The notes: generated from the letters alone by a model not told the origin. A stretch of 64,000 nt of DNA from Bacteroidales bacterium (GCA_035647615.1 DASRND010000003.1:195135-259134); one strand, 5' to 3'. Counted from the first letter of the stretch, positions 1,263-29,424 are shown. Translations and numbers: made by a program.

Positions 1263-1411
1263 CAACGCATGGCGCGGGGCGCAGGGCGCAAAGAGCAGGA
1301 GGAGGATAATCCAACGTGCGTCCGAAGGTAACGATTGACGAATTGGATTGATTTGTCAGAATGTGATTCTACACCCTTCTTTTTGTATTTTTGCCTAAAA
1401 TATTTCTAATT

Positions 1412-2125
1412 ATGATAAAGCTAAGCGTCAACATCAACAAAATCGCTACTTTGCGCAATGCCCGTGGTGGCAACATTCCCGATGTCATCAAAGCGGCCAT
1501 CGACTGTGAACGATTTGGCGCGCAGGGCATCACGGTGCACCCACGCCCCGACGAGCGGCACATCCGTTACCAGGATGTCCGCGATCTGAAGCCGTTGCTC
1601 ACCACCGAGTTCAATATCGAAGGCTATCCATCACGGGTCTTTATCGATCTTGTGCTGGAAGCTGCTCCGGCGCAGGTAACGCTGGTGCCCGATCCGCCGG
1701 ATGCCATTACCAGCAACGCCGGCTGGGACACCATTAAAAACCAAAGCTTTCTTACGGAGGTTGTTGCCGAATTTAAACGCAACGGGATTCGCACTTCGTT
1801 ATTTGTCGAAACGGATCCAAGCATAATCGAAAATGCGAAGAAAACCGGTGCCGATCGTGTGGAGTTATACACCGAGCAATATGCCACCGACTTTCCCAAA
1901 AACGCCGAAGCTGCCGTGCGACCTTTTGTTGAAGCGGCAAGGGTAGCTGCTGCAAATAGCCTGGGATTGAATGCCGGCCACGATCTGAGCCTCGACAATC
2001 TGCGTTACTTTGCCCACAGCGTGCCCGGCCTGCTCGAAGTTTCCATTGGCCATGCCCTTATTTCCGATGCGCTTTATCTGGGATTGGAAAACACCATCCA
2101 GCTTTATCTGCGGCAGTTGCGGTAG
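1412..2125 (+). CDS. pdxJ: pyridoxine 5'-phosphate synthase
   Basis: [37 protein letters not shown] and the C-terminal EVSIGHALI are classic PdxJ blocks. I prefer the ATG at 1412 over the upstream TTG at 1391. Confidence 0.9.
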
Positions 2126-2224
2126 AAGCAGGCAATTTGGTTATGAATCTTTTATGATGATTTTTTAAGAACTATACTGTTGAAAAAACCGTTAATCCTA
2201 AACAGTTAATTAAAGGAGATTGAT

Positions 2225-2443
2225 ATGAAAACGTTAACACTACAAATACCAGAAACAGTTGATGAGAATAAATTCAAGATGCACCTTGCTGCTTTTCTTT
2301 TTGAAAAAGGTATTTTATCATCAGGGCAGGCCGCTAAAGTTGCTGGCATTTCAAAAAGAGAATTTATCGAAACAATTGGTCAATACGGCGTATCAGTATT
2401 TGGAGAAACCATTGAGGATTTAGAAAAGATTGTTGATGAGTAG
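2225..2443 (+). CDS. UPF0175-family antitoxin-like protein
   Basis: A 72-aa ORF with a helix-turn-helix-like segment (LSSGQAAKVAGISKREFIETIGQYGVSVF) typical of UPF0175. Its stop overlaps the downstream PIN-like gene by 8 nt (ATGAGTAG). Confidence 0.6.
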   Translation: MKTLTLQIPETVDENKFKMHLAAFLFEKGILSSGQAAKVAGISKREFIETIGQYGVSVFGETIEDLEKIVDE

Positions 2444-2894
2444 AATTATTATTTCAGATACAAGCTGTTTAATTGCATTGGCAAAGATTGGTGAACTTGA
2501 TCTTTTAAAGGATTTATTTCATGAGATTATTATTACAAAAAGTGTTGACGAGGAATATGGAGAGCCGCTGCCTGATTGGATTTTAATAACTGATGTTAAG
2601 AATAGAAGTAAACAAATTGAGTTGGAGAAACGCCTTGATCGTGGAGAAGCCAGTTCTATTGCTTTAGCTCTTGAGATAGAAAATTCAACCTTGATAATTG
2701 ACGAAATAAAAGGTAGAAAGATTGCAGAAGCATTACAGATTGACATAATTGGAACCATTGGTATCATACTGCTTGCAAATAAGCGAGGCTTGATATCAAA
2801 TCCATTAGACTTGATTCATTTGCTGGTTAAAAATGGATTTAGAGTGTCGGATAAATTACTTAAAATGATACTCGAAAGATATGGTTCACGTTAA
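2436..2894 (+). CDS. DUF3368 / PIN-like toxin candidate
   Basis: It starts IIISDTSCLIALAKIGELDLL (beta strand followed by Asp, then helix). It continues with RLDRGEASSIALA and LIIDEIKGRKIA, the layout of DUF3368 PIN-like proteins that pair with UPF0175. Confidence 0.6.
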   Translation: MSRIIISDTSCLIALAKIGELDLLKDLFHEIIITKSVDEEYGEPLPDWILITDVKNRSKQIELEKRLDRGEASSIALALEIENSTLIIDEIKGRKIAEALQIDIIGTIGIILLANKRGLISNPLDLIHLLVKNGFRVSDKLLKMILERYGSR

Positions 2895-3119
2895 CAGCTC
2901 TCAACAGTCAACGAAATTCAGTGAAATGAAAAGCTTGTTTTCTGAAGGCTTTATTAATTTTGTAATGAGATTAATCTATGGAACAAATGAGGAATTCTGT
3001 TATGATCGAAACTTAGACGTGTAAGCGGAAGTTTTTTACCGGCTAAAACAGAAATAAACGGAATACTCACTATACACAAACGTTATGCCTCACCTTAAGA
3101 AACCAAAAAATAAATAGAG

Positions 3120-5330
3120 ATGCAAGTAGATAAAATAGCATTCGAATATGCAATCAGTAAAATTGATGACGGGAATATCTTTGAGATTTTCGGTAATGAT
3201 TTTCTATCGGCAGTATTAGGTTATTCATTTATACCTGTTGGTAGGGCTAAGGATAAAGGCGTTGACGGATTTCAGCACATATTTTCAAGGGGTGATAGCC
3301 AAAAACACATATTTCAATTATCAACCGAATTGGATCACACAAGTAAAATTTACAACACAATCAAAAAGCTTCAAAAAAATGAAATTGAGTTTGATAGAAT
3401 TGTTTATGTAACTAACAGAAAAATAAACAACGCTGAGAGTTTAATAGATGAAATCTTTGACAAGATAAAAATCCCACTAACTATTTATGACATTCGTTGG
3501 TTTTCTGCTCACAGCAACCAAAGTGAACAAACTATCAAGGCCTATCAAATTTTTGTTGACACTTATCTTCATGAGTACTTCAAACCCGGAAAACACCAAA
3601 CAGTTGCTGATTTAGATTCTGATTCTCGTTTGTTTGTTTTTTTAGGTCAACAATTTGATAGCAATAGAGATGATTTAAAACTAGATGACTTACTCGCTGA
3701 AACTTTAATATTATACGCTTTAGAAGGGACAGACCCCGACAAGCATAACTTAAAATCAGAAGTGCAGATTAAGGAATCAATTAAGAAATATTTAAAGTTT
3801 GACCCACAACTCATAGACAGTAAAATCTCAGAAAGACTGATTGCTTTAACTGTAAAACCAAGAAAAATAAAATTCCATACTAAAGAAAAGGGTTATTGTT
3901 TGCCATATGAAACAAGATTAGAAATAGGTGAAAGAAATCTAAAAGATGAAGTCTTATTCAACGTCTTTTACACTCAGACGCAAGAGACGATTAAAAAATA
4001 TTTTTCAGATGTTGAAGTTCAAGTCAAAGACGTAGAAGCCCTTATTACCAAGGTTTTTAATAAGATATTTCTAAGACAGGGTCTTGAATTTTCAAACTTT
4101 GTTCTGAAGGGTGATAGCCATTCAGTAATTGAACAGAATTTAAATGATGTTATTGGACTAGCAGTAGATGAAAGCAGCGTTATTCTTTCTAATAAAGAAA
4201 AAGTTAAAACCGCACTTCACCTTGCTATAAGAGACATTGTATATAACGGCACATCCGAACAGAGAAGATTCTTGAAGAGCCTATCTAATACTTATTTGAT
4301 GATGTTCCTACTTCAATGGGAACCAAAACTTTCAACATATTTTCAAACGCTTGCATCTCATTTAAAAGTATTCGTTGATAACTCTATTATTATCCCAGCT
4401 CTTTCAGAATACTACCTAGATGAAGGTAACAGGAGACATTGGAATCTACTAATGGGGGCAAAAAAAGCCGGTATTTCAATGTTTATAAATGAAACATTAT
4501 TGAGTGAACTAGTTTCCCATTTAAGAATGGTAAGTAGCATTTATTATAATATGTTTTACCGTATGGAAGACTTCTACCTTAATGACGAGTTTGAACTGCT
4601 TTTTATTAACGAAATTTTAATCAGGGCTTATTTCTATGCGAAGAAAAAAGGGCAGATAAAAGATTTTGATAAATTCATTGACACTTTTGTGGATTCGCAA
4701 CTCAAAACTGCTAAGGATGAATTAATCGTTTATTTAAAAGAGATTTTTGGAATAACTTTTATTTCAAATGAAATGTGGGACATAAAAGTAAATGAAGACG
4801 AAAAAGCCAAGTTGACTGAAGAGTTGAGTTATAAGAAAGACTATGATATTAAAGCCGAAAATGATGCAGAAATGATTTTGGCAATATATTACTTGCGCAA
4901 TCGAAATGGCGAATCTTGTGATAGTGGAATCTTTGGTTATAAAACTTGGTGGCTTTCCAAAGATACATCAACATACAAAGCTGTTATTAAATGTTTTGGT
5001 CCAGACAAATATCCTGTTAGTTGTTACATAAGACCCGATTTCATTTACAACTATATAGCCTTAAAACCTACAACAGAAGAAGTCAATAATGCATACAATG
5101 AAATTTTCCCTACAATGTTGGGCGTAAATCTTAGCTATCATATGCCTAAAGAAGTTTCACAGGCAGTTCAAGAAAAAATCAAAGAATATCATTCTAAACC
5201 AGCTGTAAGAGTAAAACAAACCTTGAAAACTCTTTCTGACCGATTGAAATCCGATCCGACTTTAAAAAACAGAAATTCAGTAGAACACTTTTTGGATACA
5301 GAATTAAGCAAACTACAAGACGGAGAATAG
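3120..5330 (+). CDS. large orphan cytoplasmic protein; Mrr/AIPR-like N-terminus and possible PIN-like C-terminal half (function unknown)
   Basis: An uninterrupted 736-codon ORF that is strongly AT-rich, with no signal peptide or TM segment. The N-terminus reads FEIFGNDFLSAVLGYSFIPVGRAKDKGVDGF..IFQLST. The C-terminal acidic pattern is D420, E458, D582, D615. Confidence refers to it being a real CDS, not to its function. Confidence 0.85.
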   Translation: MQVDKIAFEYAISKIDDGNIFEIFGNDFLSAVLGYSFIPVGRAKDKGVDGFQHIFSRGDSQKHIFQLSTELDHTSKIYNTIKKLQKNEIEFDRIVYVTNRKINNAESLIDEIFDKIKIPLTIYDIRWFSAHSNQSEQTIKAYQIFVDTYLHEYFKPGKHQTVADLDSDSRLFVFLGQQFDSNRDDLKLDDLLAETLILYALEGTDPDKHNLKSEVQIKESIKKYLKFDPQLIDSKISERLIALTVKPRKIKFHTKEKGYCLPYETRLEIGERNLKDEVLFNVFYTQTQETIKKYFSDVEVQVKDVEALITKVFNKIFLRQGLEFSNFVLKGDSHSVIEQNLNDVIGLAVDESSVILSNKEKVKTALHLAIRDIVYNGTSEQRRFLKSLSNTYLMMFLLQWEPKLSTYFQTLASHLKVFVDNSIIIPALSEYYLDEGNRRHWNLLMGAKKAGISMFINETLLSELVSHLRMVSSIYYNMFYRMEDFYLNDEFELLFINEILIRAYFYAKKKGQIKDFDKFIDTFVDSQLKTAKDELIVYLKEIFGITFISNEMWDIKVNEDEKAKLTEELSYKKDYDIKAENDAEMILAIYYLRNRNGESCDSGIFGYKTWWLSKDTSTYKAVIKCFGPDKYPVSCYIRPDFIYNYIALKPTTEEVNNAYNEIFPTMLGVNLSYHMPKEVSQAVQEKIKEYHSKPAVRVKQTLKTLSDRLKSDPTLKNRNSVEHFLDTELSKLQDGE

Positions 5331-5425
5331 AAAGGCTAGGCATAGCTACCAACTGTTACCACACTTTCAGAAAAACACATTTGTTCTAAAATACTCCTTC
5401 TGTCAATTTGGATGTCCTTTGAAAC

Positions 5426-5734
5426 TCACTCCATCAGTAGCGTATCTTCTTCTTTATTAATCACTTCTCCAATCATGGCAGCATGAGGATAACCTTCCTG
5501 ATGTAATGCTTCTGGCGCAACATCCACCTTTTCCGGTGCCACGCACATCAACAGGCCGCCGGAAGTTTGTGCATCGAAAAACAACATTTCGTGGTTGTAA
5601 TCGATGGAAGCATTGAAGTGGCAATGGCTGCCGGCAAATTCCTTGTTGCGGAAAGCGGCGCCGGGAATTACACCCATTTCTATCAAATTCAGCACTTCAC
5701 CGAATACGGGTAATTTGTTGGTGTCGAAACGCAT
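5426..5734 (-). pseudogene. selD: selenide,water dikinase (SelD) C-terminal remnant
   Basis: LPVFGEVLNLIEMGVIPGAAFRNKEF..FDAQTSGGLLMCV..AMIGEV matches the last ~100 aa of SelD. The upstream in-frame sequence hits a stop at 5783-5785, exactly where the neighbouring T9SS gene ends, so the N-terminal two thirds is absent. Confidence 0.7.
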
Positions 5735-5782
5735 CGAAACTTTGGATGTCGCAGCAGGATTATTGATTATTGTTCGCTCATC

Positions 5783-7957
5783 TCACATTTTGATTATTCT
5801 TCCAATGGCAACGGTTTCTCCGCTGTTAATTTTTAAAAGATAAATACCTTTTTTCAATGAACCCATTTCTATGCAGTGATGGTTTTCAAAAGGAGAATGC
5901 AGGATCGAGCGATATACCACCTCACCGGTAAGGTTTATGAGTTCCACGGTTTGCAAGCCGGATTTACTTTCGATGTACAATTTATCACGCACTGGATTGG
6001 GAAATGCTTTAACATCCAAATTTTCTAGCTCAAATACGCTACTCACCACCGTAACCTGAACAGAGTCGCTGTGCGAACAAACACCATGATTCACCTGCAC
6101 CCAGATGTTCCATTCGCCAGGTCCCAATTCCCCACCGATAATCCGGATCGCATTGGATGTGTCGCCGGTTGACCAGAGGTAGTGTTCATAAATATCCGGC
6201 AGCGTCAGGGTAAGCGTATCGTGAAGTGCAATGGCCGTGTCGGCTCCCAGGTCGATTGTAAATCCCGGCTGGATGTCGATGGTTATGGTATCGTATTGCC
6301 AGCATCCGTAATCGTCAGCAGCCGAAAGTGTATAGGTGCCAGGCTCCGTAACGCTATACCAGCTTTTATCGGATAGCTCGTTATTCCAATAGTAATATGC
6401 ATATCCTTCCGGCCCATTCAAAATTGTGCTGTCGCAAACGGTTTCATCCGGGCCAAAGCTAAACTGCGCGGGTGGATGCCGTTGCATTTTCAGCAGCAAG
6501 CCGTCCGCTATCCATCCCATATAGGAATGAAGGGTGTCGTTTTCAAGTTTTAATGTACCCTCGAAATTTGCCGAAAACAGGATTTGTTTACAATTATCCA
6601 ACATGAAATTTTCAGGCTGCAGAGACCTTGAACTATAGGGAATATAAAAATTGCTAATCTCTCCTTGAGGCGAAATCTGTCCAAACGCTGTGCGGGGATA
6701 AGCATACACCATGGTAGTATCGAAAATTGTGACAGTACCTTGCATCCCACATGCGAAGTACAAGGTATCCTCGTAAGCGTCCAGAGAGAAATACACATAT
6801 CCATAAAAAGGAATGTACCACAACGACTCCCAATTTTCGTTAAACATAGTCAGGATAGTCTGTGGGTTATTTTCGTCATAGAAAAGCGTATCATTACCAA
6901 TAATCATGGTATCTCTCACAGCTGCTGAGAAATAGAATTGACCCTTTTCATCGATAACTAAATCTCTCATTATCATTTTCCATTCGAATATTTTCCCTGT
7001 ATGCGTGTAACCGGCTGAATCGAATGTAAGTACGAATGAACGGTCTTTAACAAATCCTTGTCCGGGATCGGGATGCATAATGGTGTCATTTGAAATAATG
7101 AGATTTGTTCTGGTTCTTCCATACACTACAAACCTGTCGCCATCTACCGAAATAAAATTTCTCTTATCCACATTAAGGTATCTATCGCTATCCATTGCTA
7201 CCGAATCATTCTTTTGATTATTTGTGTAAGAATCGCCGTAAAATGATTCCCTCCAAATGAGGTCTCCCGTGGTTTTGTCCATTTTGAGAATGGACGATAA
7301 AACCGTATTGGAAGAGATTACCGAATCCTGTCCAAAATATCGCACGGTATCGGTTTCGTAAGCCCACGATGTATGGGTGGTGTTTAGATAAAGATATCCG
7401 TCGTTGCCTACATACATTCCGGCGCACAAGTCATCGGTATTACCGGAAATGAGTTTGATGTATTCAATATTTAAATCAGAAGAAAGTTTGATTATTGCGA
7501 GATCCCGCCTGTGAAATACGAGCGGCCCGGTTTCTTCATCCCGAATTACACTATCCTGAATGCTCATCCAGTTAGCGAATGGACAGGCGAGATAGATATT
7601 ATTGTCGCGATCGGTTGTCATTGCCGGATCAATCCAATAGAAACTGGCCGAATCTGTAAACAGGTCAAGCGCAAACAAACAATTCCCATCGGGGTCGAAT
7701 TTGGCAATGGCTGCATTGTGCGCAATATTTCCGGCGGAAGGGTGCGCAAATAAGGTGTCGGGCAAGAAAATGGAATCCTGATAATTGACATTTACAAAAA
7801 CATTATTGTAAAAATCGGTGTGAAGAATTTCTGTCTCACTGCGATCCCCTTTTTGAGTAAAGGACACATTCCACAGAGGCTCGAAACTTTGGGCACAGAG
7901 GTTAACCTGGAAGCTAATCGTTAAAAGAAGCAAAGGTAAGATAAAATACTTTTTCAT
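5783..7957 (-). CDS. secreted protein with T9SS C-terminal sorting domain, function unknown
   Basis: Start taken at MKKYFILPLLLLTISFQVNLCAQ (signal peptide, ATG 7957) rather than the ORF-track start at 8080. The C-terminus FPNPVRDKLYIE..KKGIYLLKINSGE..RIIKM is a T9SS CTD. Confidence 0.75.
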   Translation of the reverse strand: MKKYFILPLLLLTISFQVNLCAQSFEPLWNVSFTQKGDRSETEILHTDFYNNVFVNVNYQDSIFLPDTLFAHPSAGNIAHNAAIAKFDPDGNCLFALDLFTDSASFYWIDPAMTTDRDNNIYLACPFANWMSIQDSVIRDEETGPLVFHRRDLAIIKLSSDLNIEYIKLISGNTDDLCAGMYVGNDGYLYLNTTHTSWAYETDTVRYFGQDSVISSNTVLSSILKMDKTTGDLIWRESFYGDSYTNNQKNDSVAMDSDRYLNVDKRNFISVDGDRFVVYGRTRTNLIISNDTIMHPDPGQGFVKDRSFVLTFDSAGYTHTGKIFEWKMIMRDLVIDEKGQFYFSAAVRDTMIIGNDTLFYDENNPQTILTMFNENWESLWYIPFYGYVYFSLDAYEDTLYFACGMQGTVTIFDTTMVYAYPRTAFGQISPQGEISNFYIPYSSRSLQPENFMLDNCKQILFSANFEGTLKLENDTLHSYMGWIADGLLLKMQRHPPAQFSFGPDETVCDSTILNGPEGYAYYYWNNELSDKSWYSVTEPGTYTLSAADDYGCWQYDTITIDIQPGFTIDLGADTAIALHDTLTLTLPDIYEHYLWSTGDTSNAIRIIGGELGPGEWNIWVQVNHGVCSHSDSVQVTVVSSVFELENLDVKAFPNPVRDKLYIESKSGLQTVELINLTGEVVYRSILHSPFENHHCIEMGSLKKGIYLLKINSGETVAIGRIIKM

Positions 7958-8263
7958 GATTTTGAAATTTTTGGGTTGACTATTCAAAATATTAATAATT
8001 AACTCATCCACAAAATACCCGGAAAACACTTCACCCGACTTGTCCAATAAATCATAAGCTACTGAAAACATGCTGCTCATGATTTTCTGTTTTTTATTTG
8101 GACACTACCAATACTTTCATTTCGCCACGGGAACTATAATACATCATAAACTATTTTAGGTGTTGTTCTGCGTATTGTAAAAAATAACAACGAGGCCATC
8201 ATGTAATAAATTGTTTGTAATTTCACCTCTCGTTTTTTAATCATTCATTAACACCAATGCTAT

Positions 8264-10210
8264 ATGAAAAAGTATTTATCCATTTTCGTTCTTTTCCTTT
8301 TTGCAGCCCCGCTCCTCTGGGCTCAATATTCTTCTAATCCCGCTGAAAACCTTCGCTTGAGCACTACTGCCGGCGAGCAGGCATTGCCCAAGGCGGCTGT
8401 GTGCCCCGACGGCAGCATGTATGTTTCCTGGTTTTCGTCGGAAGACGGTAATTACAACGTGCGCTTACAACTACTTGATGCCAACGGAAATCAATTGTGG
8501 GCCTCGGGCGGATTGCTCGTTAGCGACCAGCCACAGATGACGTGGCTCACCGACTATTCGCTTACTGCCGATCAGGCGGGCTATGCCGTGGTAGTATTTC
8601 AGGATGTTCGTAATACCAACAACAACGTGGTGGCTTACCGTGTGTCGCCGGCGGGCGAAATGATGTGGGGCGACGACGGCCTGATGCTTTCTGACAGCGA
8701 TGCATTCGACGTAAACCCGCAAGTGTGCGCCACCGAAGCCGGTAATATTGTATTTGCCTGGCCAAGTCAGGGCGCCACCAATGTGGTGATGATGCAAAAA
8801 GTTTCGCCAGCGGGCGATTTGCTCTGGGGCGATGGCATCACGCTGACAGCCACCGGAATTTCCTATACTTTTCCGTTTTTGCATCCTGCCGATGGCGACC
8901 ATGTATTCCTGATCTGGCACAAAGAAACAGGTCCCTTCTGGGCGGCCAACCGTGGACTCTATGCACAAAAGCTCAACACCGACGGCTCTTTTATGTGGCC
9001 CGATGATGTGGAAGTTTTCCCACCGATAGGATCCGGCGCCGTAATCACACTCGATTTTTGTCCGGATGACGCCGGCGGCATTGTTTTTACCAAATACGGC
9101 AACGACCAAGGGACGCATTTCAACTGCTGGGTGCAGCATATCACGGCTGCCGGCACGCTCACCATGCCCGTCGACAACTATGTTTCCACTTCCATGGACA
9201 GACTGCACATGTATCCCTCTCCGGCTTTTTTGCCACAGACGCAGGAAGTGATTTTCTATTTCATTGAACAGGATCTCAACCAAAACCAGCGTGGCCTGTA
9301 TGCCCAAAAATTCGATCTGCAGGGCATCCGCCAATGGACTGACGAAGGAAAGATGCTTTTGCCGCTGTCTGACAACGACTACTCCTTGCCAATGGCTTCC
9401 AGCTATCAGGACAAAGCGATCTGCGTTTACGGCGCTGCCGTTTTTGGAAATTCCCTCGACGAAAAAGTGCAGGCGGTGATGCTTCACAGCGATGGCTCGT
9501 ATGTGTGGAATGATCATTTTATAGATATGTGCACGGTACAAAGTGGCAAATCACACGCGGTACTTTCGACCATGCACAACAACCAATGGGTGGCTGTGTG
9601 GGAAGAAAGCCGTGGCGGAAATACCGACATTTATGCACAGAACATCCATCCCGACGGCGCGCTCGGCATCGTTGGCACAATGGGAAAAATTCAGGGCTTT
9701 GTGCGGGATGCAGCTACCAACATTGCTATTACCGAAGCTACCATTACTGCCGTTAATGCCGACGATGAAACCATTACCATTGCTACTCCGTTTGGCGCTC
9801 ATTACAGCATGATGCTCACGGAAGCTGTTTACGATCTTACCTGTGAAGCTGATGGCTATCTTACCACGGCCGCTGAGAATATTATTGTGGAAGAAGGGTC
9901 GAATGTCAACCACGATTTTTATCTGCAACCGCTAACAGAACTTACAGGTTTGAGGTCGGATGCCAAAATAAAAGTACAATGGTTTCCCAACCCATTCGGT
10001 AATATGCTAACTTTGCAGGTGCCTGATGATGTAGTTGGAAGTTGTTCTGTAACCATAAGCGATGCTTTTGGCCGCACGGTTTACGCAACCACAGTTGTTG
10101 ATGCATCAGGCGCATTTGTGATTGACACACGAACTTTTGGTTCAGGACTTTATTTTTATACTATACAAACACAACTACAAACAAATCACGGTTTATTAAT
10201 CAAAAACTAA
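8264..10210 (+). CDS. secreted protein with CarboxypepD_reg-like domain and T9SS C-terminal sorting domain
   Basis: Signal peptide MKKYLSIFVLFLFAAPLLWAQ. A repetitive G/W/D-rich body is followed by GKIQGFVRDAATNIAITEATITAV (carboxypeptidase regulatory-like). The CTD reads WFPNPFGNMLTLQV..GLYFYTIQT. Confidence 0.75.
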   Translation: MKKYLSIFVLFLFAAPLLWAQYSSNPAENLRLSTTAGEQALPKAAVCPDGSMYVSWFSSEDGNYNVRLQLLDANGNQLWASGGLLVSDQPQMTWLTDYSLTADQAGYAVVVFQDVRNTNNNVVAYRVSPAGEMMWGDDGLMLSDSDAFDVNPQVCATEAGNIVFAWPSQGATNVVMMQKVSPAGDLLWGDGITLTATGISYTFPFLHPADGDHVFLIWHKETGPFWAANRGLYAQKLNTDGSFMWPDDVEVFPPIGSGAVITLDFCPDDAGGIVFTKYGNDQGTHFNCWVQHITAAGTLTMPVDNYVSTSMDRLHMYPSPAFLPQTQEVIFYFIEQDLNQNQRGLYAQKFDLQGIRQWTDEGKMLLPLSDNDYSLPMASSYQDKAICVYGAAVFGNSLDEKVQAVMLHSDGSYVWNDHFIDMCTVQSGKSHAVLSTMHNNQWVAVWEESRGGNTDIYAQNIHPDGALGIVGTMGKIQGFVRDAATNIAITEATITAVNADDETITIATPFGAHYSMMLTEAVYDLTCEADGYLTTAAENIIVEEGSNVNHDFYLQPLTELTGLRSDAKIKVQWFPNPFGNMLTLQVPDDVVGSCSVTISDAFGRTVYATTVVDASGAFVIDTRTFGSGLYFYTIQTQLQTNHGLLIKN

Positions 10211-10215
10211 CTAAA

Positions 10216-13212
10216 ATGAACAAAAAGTACTTAATTTTCATGGTTTTGCTGATGGGATTTGTGCCCTTTGTTGTGGCGCAAAATTATTGGCTTCAAAAGA
10301 CAATCAACGATCCGCAAACGGGTCGAAGTATCGAAACCACCACTACCACGGTTCCTCCCGGAATGCCCGACGGAAAACTTATGGGCGATCCTTCAATGGC
10401 GCCGGGAATCAACTGGCAGTTTACTGATCCGGCAGGCATCGGGTCGCGCGTTGTGGTAGACGATGAGCAGGGGTTCACCTTCAATTCGTGGTGGCTCAAC
10501 AACGAACGTGTTTCGCTGTGGGATGATTCCAATGTACCCTTATGGGAAATGCCTGTTCCCACCGAATGGGAATATCCTATCGACATGACCTCCGATGGTA
10601 TGTTTGTCAATGTTGCTTTCGACAACTCCGTGTACATTTACAATACCGCTACACAAGCGCTGGTGTGGGAGCTGACAATACCTGGACAAGCTGTGGCAAC
10701 CTTCCTGAGCGAAGATGGAGCTATGCTTTATGTGCTGGAAAACGAAGGTGACGCCAAATGTCTGGCTTCAGCTTATGAGGTTGGCAACACCACTCCATTG
10801 TGGCAAACAGGTTTTATTAGTTCAGCTACCATTGCCGCTGCTTCCGGCGACCGTTCCAGATTGGCAGTATGTCAGTATTCCGGTGCCAATAAGCTATGGG
10901 TCATTGATACAGAAACTGGAGAAGTGATTTTTGATGCTGGATATAAAAATCAAAACCCGCCTGCTTTTAGTTATGATGGTAACATCCTGCTCAACGGCGA
11001 CTACAGTGGCTATGCCTATTTGTACAAATACAACGAAGAGCTTAATACCTATGAAGAGCAATGGTATTTTAAAGTAGGTGGCGGTGGAAGCTCGGCATGG
11101 GTTGTAGGTATGGCCGTTTCGGCTGACGGCACCACGGCAGCCATTGGCACCCTGGTGTTTTTGTCGGGAGGTTCTGATGGTGAGATTTATCTCTTCGATA
11201 CCTATTCGCCGGTGCCTCGCTGGGTGTATGGCAATTGCGGTGACGAGATTGCGGCTGTTAGCCTTTCCGACGACGGCGCTATGCTGGCTGCTGCCGGTTA
11301 CGGTCCCCTTGACCAATCCAAACCCGATGCTTATATCTTCCGTAGAGAATCCAATGAGCCCATCTTCACGCTTACCACGCCTGGTTCCTTCTTCGACGTG
11401 GATATGTCGGGCGATGGCATGATGTGCAGCGCGACGGGCAAAGCAGTCCATGCGGGTCAGATGGGTAGCGGCGGATTGCTTTATAACCTCAACACCAATC
11501 CAGGCGGCGGCGCTCTTGCCGGCTCAATTAATGAGGATTTGGCTAAAATTGAAATCGAAGGAATCGACGATTATTATAACTACAGCGAAAATGGTGAATA
11601 TCTCATCAGATTTATCCCTGCCGGTACTTACACCGTACGTGCTTCCAAAGTTGGATTTTATCCGGTAACGGTCGAAAATGTCGTTATCACCGAAGGCGGA
11701 CAAGCCAATCTCGATTTTACGCTCGAAGCTACCGGCGATGCCCCTTATCATTTGATGGCTACACAGGGTGCCGCACTTTCTGTTGATCTTTGGTGGGATT
11801 ATGATAATCCTTCAAATATTGAGGGTTTTAATATTTATCGCAAAACCATTGAGTTGGCGCAATTTCCCGAAGAACCCATTGCTACTGTTGGTAACACCGC
11901 ACTGGAGTTTTCCGACACAGAAGCGCTTCCACTCACCACGTATTATTATGCCGTTACGGCCAAATTCTCAGGTGATGTTCAGTCGCCTTATTCTGAGGTG
12001 GCCGAAGGTTTCACAGCAACAGGTTTTGTAATTGATAATATCTCTGTTTATGTAGGTTCCACTCCGGTGATTGACGGAACGATATCGGAAGGCGAATGGG
12101 ACGACGCTTTTGTAATGGATGCCTCCGATTTCCTGGGCATCAACGACAACACGCCCAATCCGGTGGGAAGCGTGACGATGTATTACAAAATGAACGAAGC
12201 CATGACTGAACTTTACGTAGCCTGTATCAACACCAACGATACGGTGCTCGAAGATCACGATGAGGTGGCTTTGTATATCGACGATAACAATGACGGCGTT
12301 TATCCTGCTCCCGGCGACAACTCCGAGGGAAACTATTGGGCTGTTTATTATGCTGCCGGAAACGAGATACGCTATCGCCCTATTTACAATACTGGTGGGG
12401 TAGGAGACGTGGTGCTGCTCGAAAATCCACAGATTGAAGTATCAATTGCTACGGGTGTGGTGGTGTATGAATTTATGATTCCGATTGGCGATGATGCCGA
12501 CTGGAAGATTAGTCCCAACGAAGACAACCAAAGCGGGCTATTTTTATTTGTGCTTGACGATCCAATCGAAAAAGACGGATATTGGCCTGCCGAAAATTTG
12601 CAAGTTTTTGATCCTGTCGGTTATGGCACCATCACTTTCGGTGCTGAAGATCTGATGCCTGAGCCGCCACAAAATGGTTTCATCTGGTGGGATCGCGCTG
12701 AGGCGCCGATCACCGTTTTGCTCTCCTGGGATTATCCCGAAATGAACGACTTCGATCATTTTAATGTATTCATCCATCGCGATGGCAACTCCGAGCTGGT
12801 GGCAGAAACCATCGGTTCGCAACTGGTATATGTTACCGACAACAACGATTATGCAACCTTCACGGTAACCACTGTGGATCAAGCGCAAAATGAGTCGGAA
12901 GAGTCGGAGCCGCTGATTTTTGATGTTACCGTCGGCATCAGCCAGCCGGAGCTGGAAATACAAGCGCAGGTTTATCCCAATCCTTCGTCCGGAGAGGTTA
13001 CGGTTGCTTTCGCAACAGCTTTTGCTACCCGTTGCAACATCGAAGTACTGGCTCCCAACGGAACACTTCTGGAGGTGGTTTTTGATGGCGTTTTAGATAC
13101 CGGAAAACAACAAATTAGCTGGCAGCCGAAGGAAGCAGCTCCGGGCATCTATTTCATGCGCATCCGCACCGCTGAAAGCACCATCATCCGGAAAATACTG
13201 ATGATGCCGTAA
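10216..13212 (+). CDS. secreted multi-domain protein (propeller-like repeats, CarboxypepD_reg-like, FN3-like, CBM9-like) with T9SS C-terminal sorting domain
   Basis: It starts 5 nt after the previous stop, so it is probably co-transcribed. It has a signal peptide, an IDGTISEGEWDDAF block (CBM9-like) and the CTD VYPNPSSGEVTVAF..GIYFMRIRT. Confidence 0.75.
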   Translation: MNKKYLIFMVLLMGFVPFVVAQNYWLQKTINDPQTGRSIETTTTTVPPGMPDGKLMGDPSMAPGINWQFTDPAGIGSRVVVDDEQGFTFNSWWLNNERVSLWDDSNVPLWEMPVPTEWEYPIDMTSDGMFVNVAFDNSVYIYNTATQALVWELTIPGQAVATFLSEDGAMLYVLENEGDAKCLASAYEVGNTTPLWQTGFISSATIAAASGDRSRLAVCQYSGANKLWVIDTETGEVIFDAGYKNQNPPAFSYDGNILLNGDYSGYAYLYKYNEELNTYEEQWYFKVGGGGSSAWVVGMAVSADGTTAAIGTLVFLSGGSDGEIYLFDTYSPVPRWVYGNCGDEIAAVSLSDDGAMLAAAGYGPLDQSKPDAYIFRRESNEPIFTLTTPGSFFDVDMSGDGMMCSATGKAVHAGQMGSGGLLYNLNTNPGGGALAGSINEDLAKIEIEGIDDYYNYSENGEYLIRFIPAGTYTVRASKVGFYPVTVENVVITEGGQANLDFTLEATGDAPYHLMATQGAALSVDLWWDYDNPSNIEGFNIYRKTIELAQFPEEPIATVGNTALEFSDTEALPLTTYYYAVTAKFSGDVQSPYSEVAEGFTATGFVIDNISVYVGSTPVIDGTISEGEWDDAFVMDASDFLGINDNTPNPVGSVTMYYKMNEAMTELYVACINTNDTVLEDHDEVALYIDDNNDGVYPAPGDNSEGNYWAVYYAAGNEIRYRPIYNTGGVGDVVLLENPQIEVSIATGVVVYEFMIPIGDDADWKISPNEDNQSGLFLFVLDDPIEKDGYWPAENLQVFDPVGYGTITFGAEDLMPEPPQNGFIWWDRAEAPITVLLSWDYPEMNDFDHFNVFIHRDGNSELVAETIGSQLVYVTDNNDYATFTVTTVDQAQNESEESEPLIFDVTVGISQPELEIQAQVYPNPSSGEVTVAFATAFATRCNIEVLAPNGTLLEVVFDGVLDTGKQQISWQPKEAAPGIYFMRIRTAESTIIRKILMMP

Positions 13213-23055: not shown

Positions 23056-23355
23056 ATGAAGATTATCGACAAAAATATTGATAGAATCAGGGCTTTATGC
23101 AATGAGCATAGAGTGGCTCAGCTATTTGTATTTGGTTCAGTATTGAGTGATCGTTTTGATGATGCAAGTGATGTCGACTTTCTGGTTGATTTTGCAGGGG
23201 TAGATTTGTACGATTATGCGGATAATTATTTTGATTTTAAAAAATCGTTGGAAAATGTACTCAGGAGGGAGGTAGACTTGCTTGAAGGGAAAGCCGTTAA
23301 AAATCCATATCTTCTTGAATCGATAAATGCTTCAAAACAATTGATCTATGGATAA
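23056..23355 (+). CDS. mntA: MntA-type nucleotidyltransferase antitoxin
   Basis: GSVLSDRFDDASDVDFLVDF is the minimal nucleotidyltransferase G-S..D-x-D motif. It overlaps the downstream DUF86 gene by 8 nt (ATGGATAA). Confidence 0.75.
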   Translation: MKIIDKNIDRIRALCNEHRVAQLFVFGSVLSDRFDDASDVDFLVDFAGVDLYDYADNYFDFKKSLENVLRREVDLLEGKAVKNPYLLESINASKQLIYG

Positions 23356-23698
23356 AGAGATAAAAACATGGCTTTATGATACTTTGCAATCCATCGAAGA
23401 GATTGAAAGCTATTATGAAAACAAGCCAAGGATTTATGAAGAATATAAAACGGACATTAAGACTAAGAGGGCTATTGAGCGGAATTTGGAAATCATTGGA
23501 GAGGCCGTTAATAGGATTCTAAAAAAAGACCCGAAATTTATACTTAACAATGCCGAAAAAATTATCGGAACCCGAAACCGAATAATTCATGGCTACGACA
23601 AAGTTTCTGATGATTTGGTTTGGAGTATTGTAATCAAGCATTTACCCCGGCTAAAAGACGAAGTGGATGGATTGTTGAGCGAATCATGCGGTGATTAA
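23348..23698 (+). CDS. hepT: HepT (DUF86/HEPN) toxin
   Basis: RNRIIHGYD is the HEPN R-x4-H-x-Y motif. The protein is 116 aa and pairs with the upstream nucleotidyltransferase. Confidence 0.8.
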   Translation: MDKEIKTWLYDTLQSIEEIESYYENKPRIYEEYKTDIKTKRAIERNLEIIGEAVNRILKKDPKFILNNAEKIIGTRNRIIHGYDKVSDDLVWSIVIKHLPRLKDEVDGLLSESCGD

Positions 23699-27770: not shown

Positions 27771-28670
27771 ATGAAACACAATAGTCTAAAAATTATGGCG
27801 CTAAGTGCTGTAGCGTTTTTGACCTGTTTTTCAGGTATTATCAGACATGATGTTGATGAAAAGGAGTACTTAAAATTAGCCGAAGAGACACAATTTGATT
27901 GTGTTGGCCGAATTTTTAAAGACACTTCGGCCAGTGGATCTTGTGTGTTAATTAGCAATCGCTTTGTTTTATCAGCCGCACACGTTTTTATTGACACCGA
28001 TACCCGACCTGACACAATGGAGATTAACGGACAGACTATTACTGTATTTACTCCTTACAACGAAAGGGTTACGGATGTAAATAAACTCACCCTGGTTTTC
28101 AATGGGCAAAAAGTTAAAGTTAAAAAATTAACATTACATCCTAATTATCTGGACAGTTTAACGAAAGGTTCGTGCGACATAGCACTAATTGAATTAGAGC
28201 AACCTTTAAAAGGTATTTCACCTGCAAAACTTAACGATGCCTTTGACGAGCTAAAATCAAATGTTGTAGGTGTTGGTTATGGTGCATCCGGACCAGCAGA
28301 CAGACCAGATTTAGTGGATTTATTACATAAAAAGATTGCTGGAGAAAATGTCATTGATAGCATCGGAGGTTCAGAGCTTTCAGGAAATGGAACCATACTT
28401 TTATGTGACTTCGATCACCCAACCCGGGATGACTGCAACAAAATGGGCAGTTCGGTCCCCAGACCTTTGGAGTATATTAGCACTGGAGGTGATAGTGGCG
28501 GGGGATTGTTTAGAAAAAACGGTAATGACTGGGAATTAATTGGAATTTGTGGTGGTGCTGGAGGAGGAATTGATCTTGCACAATTCATGAAAACATATTA
28601 TTACGGACAAATTATGGAATGGACGAGAGTAGCAGCGTTCACAGAATGGATTGATGAACAGACAAAATGA
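27771..28670 (+). CDS. secreted trypsin-like (S1 family) serine protease
   Basis: It has a signal peptide and the catalytic triad contexts LSAAHV (His), DIALIEL (Asp) and GGDSGGGLF (Ser). Confidence 0.8.
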   Translation: MKHNSLKIMALSAVAFLTCFSGIIRHDVDEKEYLKLAEETQFDCVGRIFKDTSASGSCVLISNRFVLSAAHVFIDTDTRPDTMEINGQTITVFTPYNERVTDVNKLTLVFNGQKVKVKKLTLHPNYLDSLTKGSCDIALIELEQPLKGISPAKLNDAFDELKSNVVGVGYGASGPADRPDLVDLLHKKIAGENVIDSIGGSELSGNGTILLCDFDHPTRDDCNKMGSSVPRPLEYISTGGDSGGGLFRKNGNDWELIGICGGAGGGIDLAQFMKTYYYGQIMEWTRVAAFTEWIDEQTK

Positions 28671-28728
28671 AATGTCTGTAACATTGCATTGGCATTATGG
28701 AACAATTCATAAACTAAATAAAACAAAA

Positions 28729-29424
28729 ATGAAAACACTAAAACTTTTGGTAATAGCAGGGATGATGTTACTTCTGGGGTTGAACCTTCAGGCCCAGAAA
28801 ATTAATTATGGGGTTCTTGCAGGATATGTTTATGCTACCCCACATGTTACCCAGTATGAAGATTATGGTACAAAATTGTTTTATCCAATGCATTCGTTTA
28901 ATGTAAACGGATTTGTTGAATACCGGCTTTCCGAAACCTGGGGCATAGCAGCAGAACCCGGGTACATTAGAAAAGGAGGTGTTTTTAAGGATAAGGAAGA
29001 TATTTCGAACTCTTCTGATCATCAACTTCGACTTCATTACATTCAGCTACCGATACTTGCGAATGTTTATTTCTCAGATAGGTTCTTTATTTCCTTCGGT
29101 CCTGAGTTTGCTTATTTAATTAACAAAGACGCCAGTTTTCCATCTCTGGAAGAACAACATTCTGCTTATTATAAATTTACTCCTCTTGAAGAAAGCGCTT
29201 TTGAAATTTCAGCATTGATTGGTGTAAACTATAGCATTACAAAGAATATTGATTTAGGGTTAAGGTATAATCATAGCATTACACGTTTTTCCGAGATAGG
29301 CTGGATTAATCCCAGATATGGAATCGATCTTGGAATCGTTTCGGAACGCTCAAACGCATACAATCAATACCTGCAATTTATAGTGAGGTACAGAATAAAA
29401 CCCGGTGCTAACAAGCGTTCATAA
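28729..29424 (+). CDS. outer-membrane beta-barrel protein (porin-family / PorT-like barrel)
   Basis: Start taken at MKTLKLLVIAGMMLLLGLNLQAQ. It shows alternating beta-strand periodicity, YIQLPILANVYF and a terminal aromatic-rich strand. Confidence 0.6.
   Translation: MKTLKLLVIAGMMLLLGLNLQAQKINYGVLAGYVYATPHVTQYEDYGTKLFYPMHSFNVNGFVEYRLSETWGIAAEPGYIRKGGVFKDKEDISNSSDHQLRLHYIQLPILANVYFSDRFFISFGPEFAYLINKDASFPSLEEQHSAYYKFTPLEESAFEISALIGVNYSITKNIDLGLRYNHSITRFSEIGWINPRYGIDLGIVSERSNAYNQYLQFIVRYRIKPGANKRS

Follow-up and report, generated by a model that had tools for sequence, protein, structure and literature searches.

We analysed a 64,000-nt stretch of DNA from a Bacteroidales bacterium (GCA_035647615.1 DASRND010000003.1:195135-259134; hereafter the window), in which an AT-rich islet at positions 2126-5425 separates pdxJ from a truncated selD gene and carries a toxin–antitoxin (TA) pair followed by a gene for a 736-aa protein. 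Our overall reading, to which we give a probability of roughly 0.68, is that the islet occupies a rewritten recombination hotspot and that the 736-aa gene encodes a putative two-nuclease immunity protein. The original prediction, made from the sequence alone, was that the three genes form one horizontally acquired accessory islet whose arrival or turnover was associated with the loss of most of selD; comparison with relatives divides the islet into two modules and places the damage to selD on the side away from it. All coordinates are those of the window and L-numbers designate the loci with which it was compared. The features under discussion are as follows (ORF, open reading frame; T9SS, type IX secretion system).

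1412-2125, plus strand: pdxJ, the conserved left anchor (PF03740, E 3.7e-90; NCBIfam equivalog)
2015-2141, plus strand: pdxJ 3′ end plus 16 bp, counterpart of a left repeat copy; the right copy is absent from the window
2142-3005, plus strand: TA cassette, module 1, also found in L163 (as far as 3005) and in L092/L169 (as far as 2888)
2225-2443, plus strand: UPF0175 antitoxin-like gene, 72 aa (PF03683, E 4e-15; PADLOC PDC-S70, E 1.6e-9)
2436-2894, plus strand: COG2405/DUF3368 PIN toxin-like gene, 152 aa from its ATG (PF11848; PDC-S70)
3006-3076, no strand: spacer at the module junction, without similarity to L163, L169, L164 or other copies of the 736-aa gene
3077-5344, plus strand: module 2, the transferable unit, consisting of the coding sequence at 3120-5330 with about 43 bp upstream and 14 bp downstream
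3120-5330, plus strand: 736-aa ORF, with no Pfam, NCBIfam or PADLOC family match
5426-5746, minus strand: selD 3′ remnant (ORF 5426-5734; breakpoint near 5746)
5747-8199, minus strand: lineage-specific replacement segment with a 765-aa T9SS-cargo gene (5783-8080; Por_Secre_tail, E 1.1e-10), a gap in homology to L164

An AT-rich islet at a variable site

Base composition sets the islet apart from its surroundings. Its G+C content of 32.6% compares with 45.1% elsewhere in the window; no other 3.3-kb sliding window is as low (mean 44.3%, standard deviation (sd) 3.1%), and the value lies about 3.7 sd under their mean. Along the sequence, about 50% in pdxJ gives way to 30-36% at 2126-5425, with a recovery in the selD remnant. 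The original prediction had described this drop after pdxJ from hand counts that proved exact (36/60 G+C at 1681-1740 and 14/60 at 3361-3420), and sliding G+C and codon-usage calculations agree that the islet differs from the window background. G+C at third codon positions (GC3) is 0.255-0.278 in the three islet genes compared with 0.514 ± 0.078 in 32 other long ORFs, and these genes have both the lowest GC3 in the window and the largest codon-usage distance from its background. They are co-oriented, as had been described: a UPF0175 gene, a DUF3368/PIN gene that overlaps it by 8 nt (ATGAGTAG, 2436-2443) and the 736-aa ORF.

Variation at the site was assessed in relatives with a 92-95% identical PdxJ (the source of the window is an uncultured Bacteroidales bacterium, and its PdxJ is 100% identical to a protein from a metagenome-assembled genome). 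Relatives with an empty site were found by a metagenome scan with the less conserved DUF3108 neighbour and by exact-protein look-ups of close PdxJ variants. A scan of genome contigs with PdxJ gave, among the matches listed, relatives at no more than 77% identity and without synteny, while contigs with an identical T9SS-cargo protein all carry the same islet, belong to the same population and are uninformative on the history of the site. Four states were seen:

State a (L164, L165, L168): pdxJ, then in reverse orientation a 62-aa ORF, an intact 345-aa selD and a TusA/DsrE fusion, then the orf649/orf998 T9SS-cargo genes; without the TA pair, the 736-aa gene and the 765-aa gene
State b (L092, L169-L172): TA pair, a second pdxJ 3′ end, three palindromes resembling repetitive extragenic palindromic (REP) elements and a reverse-oriented 724-aa T9SS-cargo gene; without selD and without the 736-aa gene
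State c (L163): TA pair and 111 bp in common with the window (to 3005), then unrelated sequence
State d (window, L088-L091): TA pair, 736-aa gene, selD remnant and 765-aa T9SS-cargo gene

The pdxJ site is thus an accessory, variable hotspot. The three genes are not conserved as a set in these close relatives, and a conserved syntenic context, the finding that would have told against acquisition, is refuted. Homology between the window and L164 comes in blocks (1-1262, 1380-2141, 5480-5746 and 8200-13212) with breakpoints at 2141/2142, 5479/5480, 5746/5747 and 8199/8200. The segment at 2142-5479, which holds the TA pair and the 736-aa gene, stands in place of about 430 bp of L164, made up of the 62-aa ORF and the final 54 bp of selD, which have diverged; the segment at 5747-8199 stands in place of L164 selD codons 1-239, tusA/dsrE and an intergenic region. 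The 'empty' site is therefore not quite empty: the 62-aa ORF, which has no Pfam match, lies between pdxJ and selD in L164 (8143-8331, minus strand), L165, L168 and L114 (1183-1371, minus strand), is shortened to 37 aa in L166 and is replaced by the islet in the window.

The islet itself is a composite of two independently acquired modules, the TA cassette and the 736-aa gene, because sister lineages carry the TA pair alone and the DNA similarity of the 736-aa gene outside the locus covers 3077-5344 only. The TA block is 90.5% identical to L163 over 1379-3005 and 83.9% identical to L169 over 1380-2888. A single integrative islet, in which all three genes arrived in one event and their insertion or turnover cut selD, would fit genes that are co-oriented, contiguous, uniformly AT-rich and adjacent to a truncated selD, yet we consider it very improbable: the TA pair occurs without the 736-aa gene in L092 and L169-L172, L163 keeps the cassette to 3005 and then diverges, no alignment of the 736-aa gene with a copy elsewhere extends into the TA pair, and selD meets the islet with its stop codon, its lost 5′ part having given way to the T9SS-cargo segment on the opposite side. 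What stands of the prediction is a horizontally acquired accessory islet at a site that varies among relatives; what does not is that it is one unit.

In these respects the site resembles known defence-island and integration hotspots, where alternative cargo lies between the same conserved flanks, here pdxJ and the orf648/orf998 T9SS-cargo genes, and its cargo is likewise all of the defence/TA type or made up of fast-evolving surface genes. It differs from them in having no integrase, tRNA or transposase, the sole mechanistic trace being a 148-bp duplication of the 3′ end of a protein-coding gene (described below). The region upstream of pdxJ also varies. L163 has Poly_export, a 780-aa gene and a 93-aa gene in place of leuS-DUF3108, and the point at which its similarity to the window begins is exactly 33 bp before the pdxJ ATG. 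No match to the spacer between DUF3108 and pdxJ (1263-1379) exists in L164 or L169. This differing context and the unmatched spacer place a second recombination boundary just upstream of pdxJ.

Loss of selD and the T9SS-cargo segment

The ORF at 5426-5734 corresponds to positions 250-341 of 347 in the NCBIfam SelD model and, relative to the intact SelD of L164, retains the last 102 of 345 codons (about 100 had been estimated), with the breakpoint near SelD residue 240. The islet does adjoin this truncated gene, as predicted, but contact is at the intact 3′ end: the native stop codon (5426) faces the islet, and the broken 5′ end, near 5746, lies on the far side, with about 36 bp between it and the 765-aa gene's stop codon. 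The loss of most of selD is thus tied to the T9SS-cargo segment and not, as had been proposed, to the arrival or turnover of the AT-rich islet, because homology to L164 runs through the selD 3′ end and breaks at 5746/5747, and the missing 5′ part is replaced by 5747-8199 on the side away from the islet. Import of the remnant together with the islet was considered and ruled out: its DNA is 83.5% identical to L164 selD over 5480-5746, equal to the vertically inherited flanks (83-87%), and its G+C is host-like, so that it is a vertical leftover.

The T9SS-cargo gene of 765 aa is absent from the L164-type relatives and is itself lineage-specific cargo. Its product is 71% identical to the 724-aa version in L092/L169, and the flanking genes are 85-92% identical.

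Could the remnant encode a functional small AIRS_C-like protein and not be a pseudogene? Its reading frame runs uninterrupted from an internal Met to the native stop codon, its dN/dS against L164 is 0.135 (0.05-0.12 in flanking genes) and not near 1, and databases contain short AIRS_C-only proteins (115-197 aa), some of them on long contigs. We nevertheless judge this unlikely in the extreme, if a shade less so than the single-islet account. The remnant lacks the whole N-terminal AIRS domain, including the catalytic Cys/Sec-Lys region that a functional SelD has; its dN is 2-4 times as high as in the flanking genes; a sister lineage has deleted it entirely; and a low pairwise dN/dS is expected if truncation was recent relative to the divergence. 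The dN/dS and raised dN are compatible with, and not decisive for, a recent relaxation of constraint.

The closest database relatives of the remnant (P0122-P0132) are all short AIRS_C-only proteins of 75-197 aa, and two of them, P0129 and P0130, lie on contigs of 19 and 95 kb, so their shortness is not an effect of contig ends. The truncation of selD may be a recurrent event, or short AIRS_C proteins may form a family of their own. In L169-L172, positions 1-993 hold selU (tRNA 2-selenouridine synthase, Rhodanese and AAA_SelU) about 8 kb upstream of pdxJ despite the deletion of selD; either a second selD lies elsewhere in these genomes or selU is stranded. The counterpart of this region falls outside the window.

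The toxin–antitoxin cassette and its insertion scar

COG2405/DUF3368 PIN proteins with UPF0175 partners are a recognised putative TA family, and UPF0175 is reported to occur exclusively with COG2405 (PMC5499597). PADLOC lists such pairs as the candidate defence system PDC-S70 (PMC12988326), a representative of which was reported to cut the plating of phages T4, T5 and T7 by 100- to 1000-fold in E. coli (bioRxiv 10.1101/2024.09.26.614923). The pair in the window belongs here: the toxin exceeds the Pfam gathering score (PF11848, 38.9 bits against a cut-off of 27.3) and matches PDC-S70 over its full length (E 3e-38), and the UPF0175 gene is directly upstream on the same strand. A PADLOC run, which had been suggested for all three proteins, thus identified the TA pair and left the 736-aa protein without a match. 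With the same domains above threshold, the typical antitoxin-then-toxin order and a stop/start overlap, the cassette shows no notable difference from PDC-S70 and is an ordinary member of a known TA or candidate defence kind; its one distinctive feature is the pdxJ 3′ repeat in the sister lineage.

That repeat makes part of the acquisition mechanism visible, because the sister lineage keeps it around the TA cassette. In L092 and L169, a 148-bp direct repeat, consisting of the last 105-111 bp of pdxJ and 23-37 bp downstream, brackets the cassette. Self-comparison of L092 pairs 5827-5972 with 6739-6886 at 93% identity, and blastn matches window 2015-2140 to L092 6739-6864 at 92%. The right copy runs on into the native downstream flank of the empty site as seen in L164, the left copy into cassette DNA; the right copy is missing in the window and in L163. 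The repeat is an insertion scar of the kind that would be left by single-crossover (Campbell-type) integration of a circular DNA with its own copy of the pdxJ 3′ end, or by integrase action at an attachment (att) site embedded in pdxJ. In the window itself the marks of an integrase-mediated island were not found, in keeping with the original description: no integrase or recombinase is present among the islet ORFs, no tRNA lies within 28 kb, and no flanking direct repeats were detected. Rfam and terminator scans of the region found nothing.

Three palindromic REP-like units of about 20 nt (AACCCTGTCAGGGTTTAGG) lie at about 6926-7035 in L092, equivalent to about 10700-10815 in L169. There they separate the right pdxJ 3′ repeat copy from the T9SS-cargo gene and occupy the place where the window has the selD remnant; the window itself lacks them.

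A large and mobile family of 736-aa proteins

The 736-aa gene had been called an orphan, a description that does not survive database searches. A word-indexed search returned more than 460 relatives of the protein, 54-94% identical and nearly all 731-750 aa long, none with a Pfam domain; close relatives come from Tenuifilum, Dysgonamonadaceae, Pyrinomonadaceae, Colwellia and Leptospira. An exhaustive profile search extended the family to 1,162 cluster representatives (50%-identity clusters) at E <= 1e-3, of which 353 reach E <= 1e-30. Its members, of about 735-750 aa, keep the full-length architecture down to about 22% identity and occur in Bacteroidota, Acidobacteriota, Gammaproteobacteria and Spirochaetota. 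Eight Enterobacteriaceae plasmids carry a homologue (23.5% identity over 96% of the length) annotated as hypothetical, and this protein, WP_016156503.1, is present in 5 of 5,426 complete E. coli genomes, always on plasmids. No family copy was found in 50,697 phage records.

At the DNA level, copies that L001 (Tenuifilum sp.) and L004-L006 carry at unrelated loci are about 80.7% identical to the gene, with similarity limited to 3077-5344. The gene has a G+C content of 27-34% in all seven hosts examined, whatever the composition of the host, and no conserved neighbouring gene was seen beside the copies in eleven contexts examined. These alignments indicate that the gene moves as a single gene and has been horizontally transferred. 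Around the unit, only short, chance-level matches turned up when terminal repeats (inverted or direct) and a target duplication were sought.

A role as a housekeeping repair or RNA-processing factor, with low G+C arising from amino-acid composition, hardly seems tenable. It would agree with the strong purifying conservation of the protein (including 55-75% identity across phyla) and with the solitary position of the gene among housekeeping genes in L173 and L007. Against it, the gene is absent from the same locus in relatives with a 92-95% identical PdxJ, its E. coli homologue is confined to the plasmids of five of the 5,426 complete genomes, its context differs in every genome examined and its GC3 lies more than 3 sd under the host mean; the patchy distribution likewise argues against a housekeeping role.

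Predicted domains of the 736-aa protein

The domain organisation was deduced from an AlphaFold2 (AF2) model built on a 126-sequence alignment (pLDDT 78.1, pTM 0.69) and from residue conservation and Pfam hits counted over 66 diverse family members:

3120-3599, plus strand: predicted Mrr/MspJI-like PD-(D/E)xK nuclease domain, residues 1-160 (AF2, Foldseek, conserved residues)
3627-4355, plus strand: putative winged-helix module, then a helical bundle, residues 170-412 (AF2 secondary-structure order)
4356-5069, plus strand: predicted PIN_12 (DUF4935)-like nuclease domain, residues 413-650 (weak Pfam and Foldseek matches, conserved acids)

The N-terminal domain very probably adopts a restriction-endonuclease fold. 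An alpha-beta-beta-beta-alpha-beta core is modelled, at pLDDT 80-92 for most of residues 1-150, and Foldseek aligns it over about 170 columns with MspJI, FokI, BamHI, EcoT38I and AspBHI at probability 1.00 (E 0.014-0.15) and with phage 'restriction endonuclease' and Mrr-like proteins at E 0.002-0.03. Mrr_cat is the commonest Pfam match in the family (11/66 members at E <= 1, best 2.9e-4), followed by PIN_12 (7/66) and PIN (2/66), with 49 other families matched by one member each; the window protein itself has no PF04471 match at the gathering score. The family consensus weakly matches a PADLOC model of a restriction endonuclease (REase)-TIR protein associated with prokaryotic Argonaute (E 0.0039, residues 14-127), a likeness to the Mrr-like effectors that partner short Argonautes. 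Residues E22, D45 and K76 are present in 66/66 members, Q66 in 65/66 and D49 in 64/66. We take the helix Glu, the G-x-D-G-G-x-D-G loop and the Q-x-(S/T) strand to resemble the Mrr_cat signature.

Compared with Mrr/MspJI type IV enzymes, which share this fold (Foldseek probability 1.00 for MspJI, AspBHI, FokI and BamHI), the 736-aa protein has its nuclease domain at the N rather than the C terminus, lacks a recognisable SRA or Mrr-N domain and is fused to a PIN-like domain. The Lys of the QxK motif is also replaced: the position is Ser/Thr in 65/66 members, and the invariant K76 follows 8 residues later.

The central region (residues 170-412) has no family or fold match. From the model, it would contain a winged-helix module, and it is possible that it acts as a sensor or regulator.

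A PIN-like fold for the C-terminal domain is probable. The order of predicted elements (strand 453-457, helices 458-543, strand 545-548, helix 559-570, helix 576-595, strand 609-612) follows strand 2 with a long helical insert and strand 3 with two helices, as in PIN_12/DUF4935, and the acidic positions D420/422 (58/66), E463 (64/66), D582 (55/66) and D/E615 (60/66) are conserved, with E430, R502, R593 and G606 invariant. The E. coli plasmid homologue keeps all the conserved PIN acids and has a classical 'LDTT' first motif. Foldseek relates the domain to VapC15 (probability 0.72-0.84, TM-score 0.53), HARP (0.45-0.49) and a phage 'PIN like domain' (probability 0.98 over 254 columns), all at E > 0.1. 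Profile matches fall below the PIN_12 gathering score of 32 bits: the window protein has no hit, the best of the seven matching members reaches E 1.2e-3, and the family consensus gives E 0.099 (13.5 bits) over beta1-beta2. An hhalign comparison of the C-terminal profile with shallow COG2405 and VapC templates gave no signal.

DUF4935/PIN_12 proteins have helical inserts, with two helices after strand 3, and are monocistronic (PMC5499597); one of them, Cosus/Brc24, is a single-gene integron cassette reported to defend against T7 and to need its PIN acidic residues (bioRxiv 10.1101/2024.07.02.601719). The C-terminal 240-320 residues of the 736-aa family have the same four acidic positions and helical inserts, and the gene is again monocistronic. 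Apart from remaining below the Pfam threshold (sub-threshold hits in 7/66 members), the 736-aa protein differs in being about twice as long, with the additional N-terminal PD-(D/E)xK domain and central helical region.

Searches with the whole protein were otherwise negative. It has no hit at E <= 1 among 5,027 PADLOC v2.0.0 models, its family profile matches the PDB only through a chance sulfotransferase hit, and a majority consensus of the family performs no better against Pfam than single members do.

Genomic company and a putative role in immunity

The neighbours of the 736-aa genes were examined for defence genes:

Window: PDC-S70 neighbour
L178: BREX (BrxL, PglZ, PglX-like) and HipBA
L175: AbiEi (E 7.5e-87), PDC-M36A and a Schlafen/AlbA_2 ATPase
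L179/L180 plasmids: Ppl-like ATPase (E 6e-35); RelB, RES and ParD genes
L181: PDC-S05 (E 1.7e-140) and a methylase fragment
L183: VapBC and IS481 copies
L004: AAA_14/DUF4143 and EAD11
L001, L007 and L173: housekeeping genes only

In enterobacteria (L179, 7434-13196, E. coli G3/10 plasmid pSYM5/6; L180) the homologue always lies in the same block, with a 146-aa hypothetical gene upstream and, downstream, a convergent gene annotated as a 'TrlF family AAA-like ATPase' whose product is matched by three PADLOC models (Ppl, PDC-M49A and AriA). We also considered whether the TA pair and the 736-aa gene work together, and rejected this because no other 736-aa copy has a COG2405/UPF0175 neighbour. The TA pair is an independent module of the same functional class.

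On balance, with the odds slightly better than even, we favour the 736-aa protein as a self-contained immunity protein directed against phages or mobile elements. In such a system, the protein would be held inactive by its central helical region until it senses foreign or modified nucleic acid, and would then cleave DNA, RNA or both. Recognition of such DNA would fall to the Mrr-like domain, possibly aided by the winged-helix-like module, and the PIN-like domain would make a second cleavage, of RNA or of structured or single-stranded DNA. The outcome could be direct restriction of the invader or abortive infection.

The main rival is a nuclease that serves its mobile carrier DNA, through addiction or post-segregational killing, plasmid competition or modification-dependent type IV restriction. 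A homologue does lie among TA genes on IncF-type enterobacterial plasmids, the L183 copy is flanked by IS481, the N-terminal fold is Mrr/MspJI-like, and the gene is AT-rich and mobile on its own. However, there is no conserved cognate antitoxin, methylase or partner beside the gene, most copies found are chromosomal, and the family is missing from all the phage records searched, so we hold a selfish or element-maintenance role to be unlikely, at perhaps one chance in five; the distinction is in part semantic, type IV restriction being itself a form of defence.

Several points weigh against an immunity protein at a rewritten hotspot. The window protein has no match in Pfam, NCBIfam, PADLOC, PHROGs or PDB sequences. 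Every Foldseek match has an E-value above 0.001, and of the two folds PIN is the less well matched; the first PIN Asp occupies two alternative positions, 420 or 422; and with Ser/Thr in place of Lys in the (D/E/Q)xK motif, the N-terminal domain may bind rather than cut. Defence-gene company is suggestive, an anecdotal case of guilt by association, and 3 of 11 contexts (L001, L007 and L173) are plain housekeeping. For the site, neither an integrase nor a circular form was seen for integration of the TA cassette, and the order of events and the Campbell-type mechanism proposed below are read back from end states.

A proposed history of the site

The ancestral arrangement would be that kept in L164, with pdxJ facing a reverse-oriented 62-aa ORF, selD and tusA/dsrE. 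A 2.45-kb segment with the 765-aa T9SS-cargo gene would have replaced tusA/dsrE and the first 239 codons of selD, leaving an inert 3′ remnant. A UPF0175/COG2405-PIN cassette of about 0.8 kb would have entered just after pdxJ, probably by Campbell-type recombination with a circular DNA that carried a segment identical to the pdxJ 3′ end. The 736-aa gene would have come separately, removing the right repeat copy and the 62-aa ORF.

Other features of the window

A second TA pair lies at 23056-23698 (plus strand) in a low-GC patch at 22.5-23.7 kb (about 36% G+C), where a gene for a 99-aa nucleotidyltransferase (Polbeta/NTP_transf_2, E 2e-11) overlaps one for a 116-aa HepT-like HEPN RNase (E 3e-21). 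This MNT/HepT architecture has been described for PDC-M05 (PMC12988326). At 27771-29424 (plus strand), a gene for a 299-aa trypsin-like protease overlaps one for a 256-aa outer-membrane beta-barrel protein; only the islet genes have a lower GC3 than theirs (0.30), and the low-GC stretch at 27-29.5 kb in which they lie may be another acquired segment.

Implications

The islet is an ordinary variable hotspot and its TA pair a known candidate system. The pdxJ locus nonetheless offers a clean, dated series in which a selenium-utilisation module (selD with tusA/dsrE) was lost while surface-protein and defence cargo was gained. The useful result is the 736-aa family, with more than 1,100 clusters at 50% identity, two predicted nuclease sites and repeated defence-island company, which annotation has missed because there is no Pfam, NCBIfam or PADLOC model for it. 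We tentatively propose, at somewhat less than even odds, that the family is an undescribed, widely transferred single-protein immune system that joins Mrr/MspJI-like and PIN_12-like domains through a central sensor. The combination of Mrr-like and PIN_12-like domains in one chain is a new architecture, and the natural E. coli plasmid copy WP_016156503.1 makes it directly testable. If a defence role is true, the family would add a new architecture to nuclease-based single-gene defence, a kind already known, and its recognition would improve the annotation of defence genes in Bacteroidota and in metagenomes.

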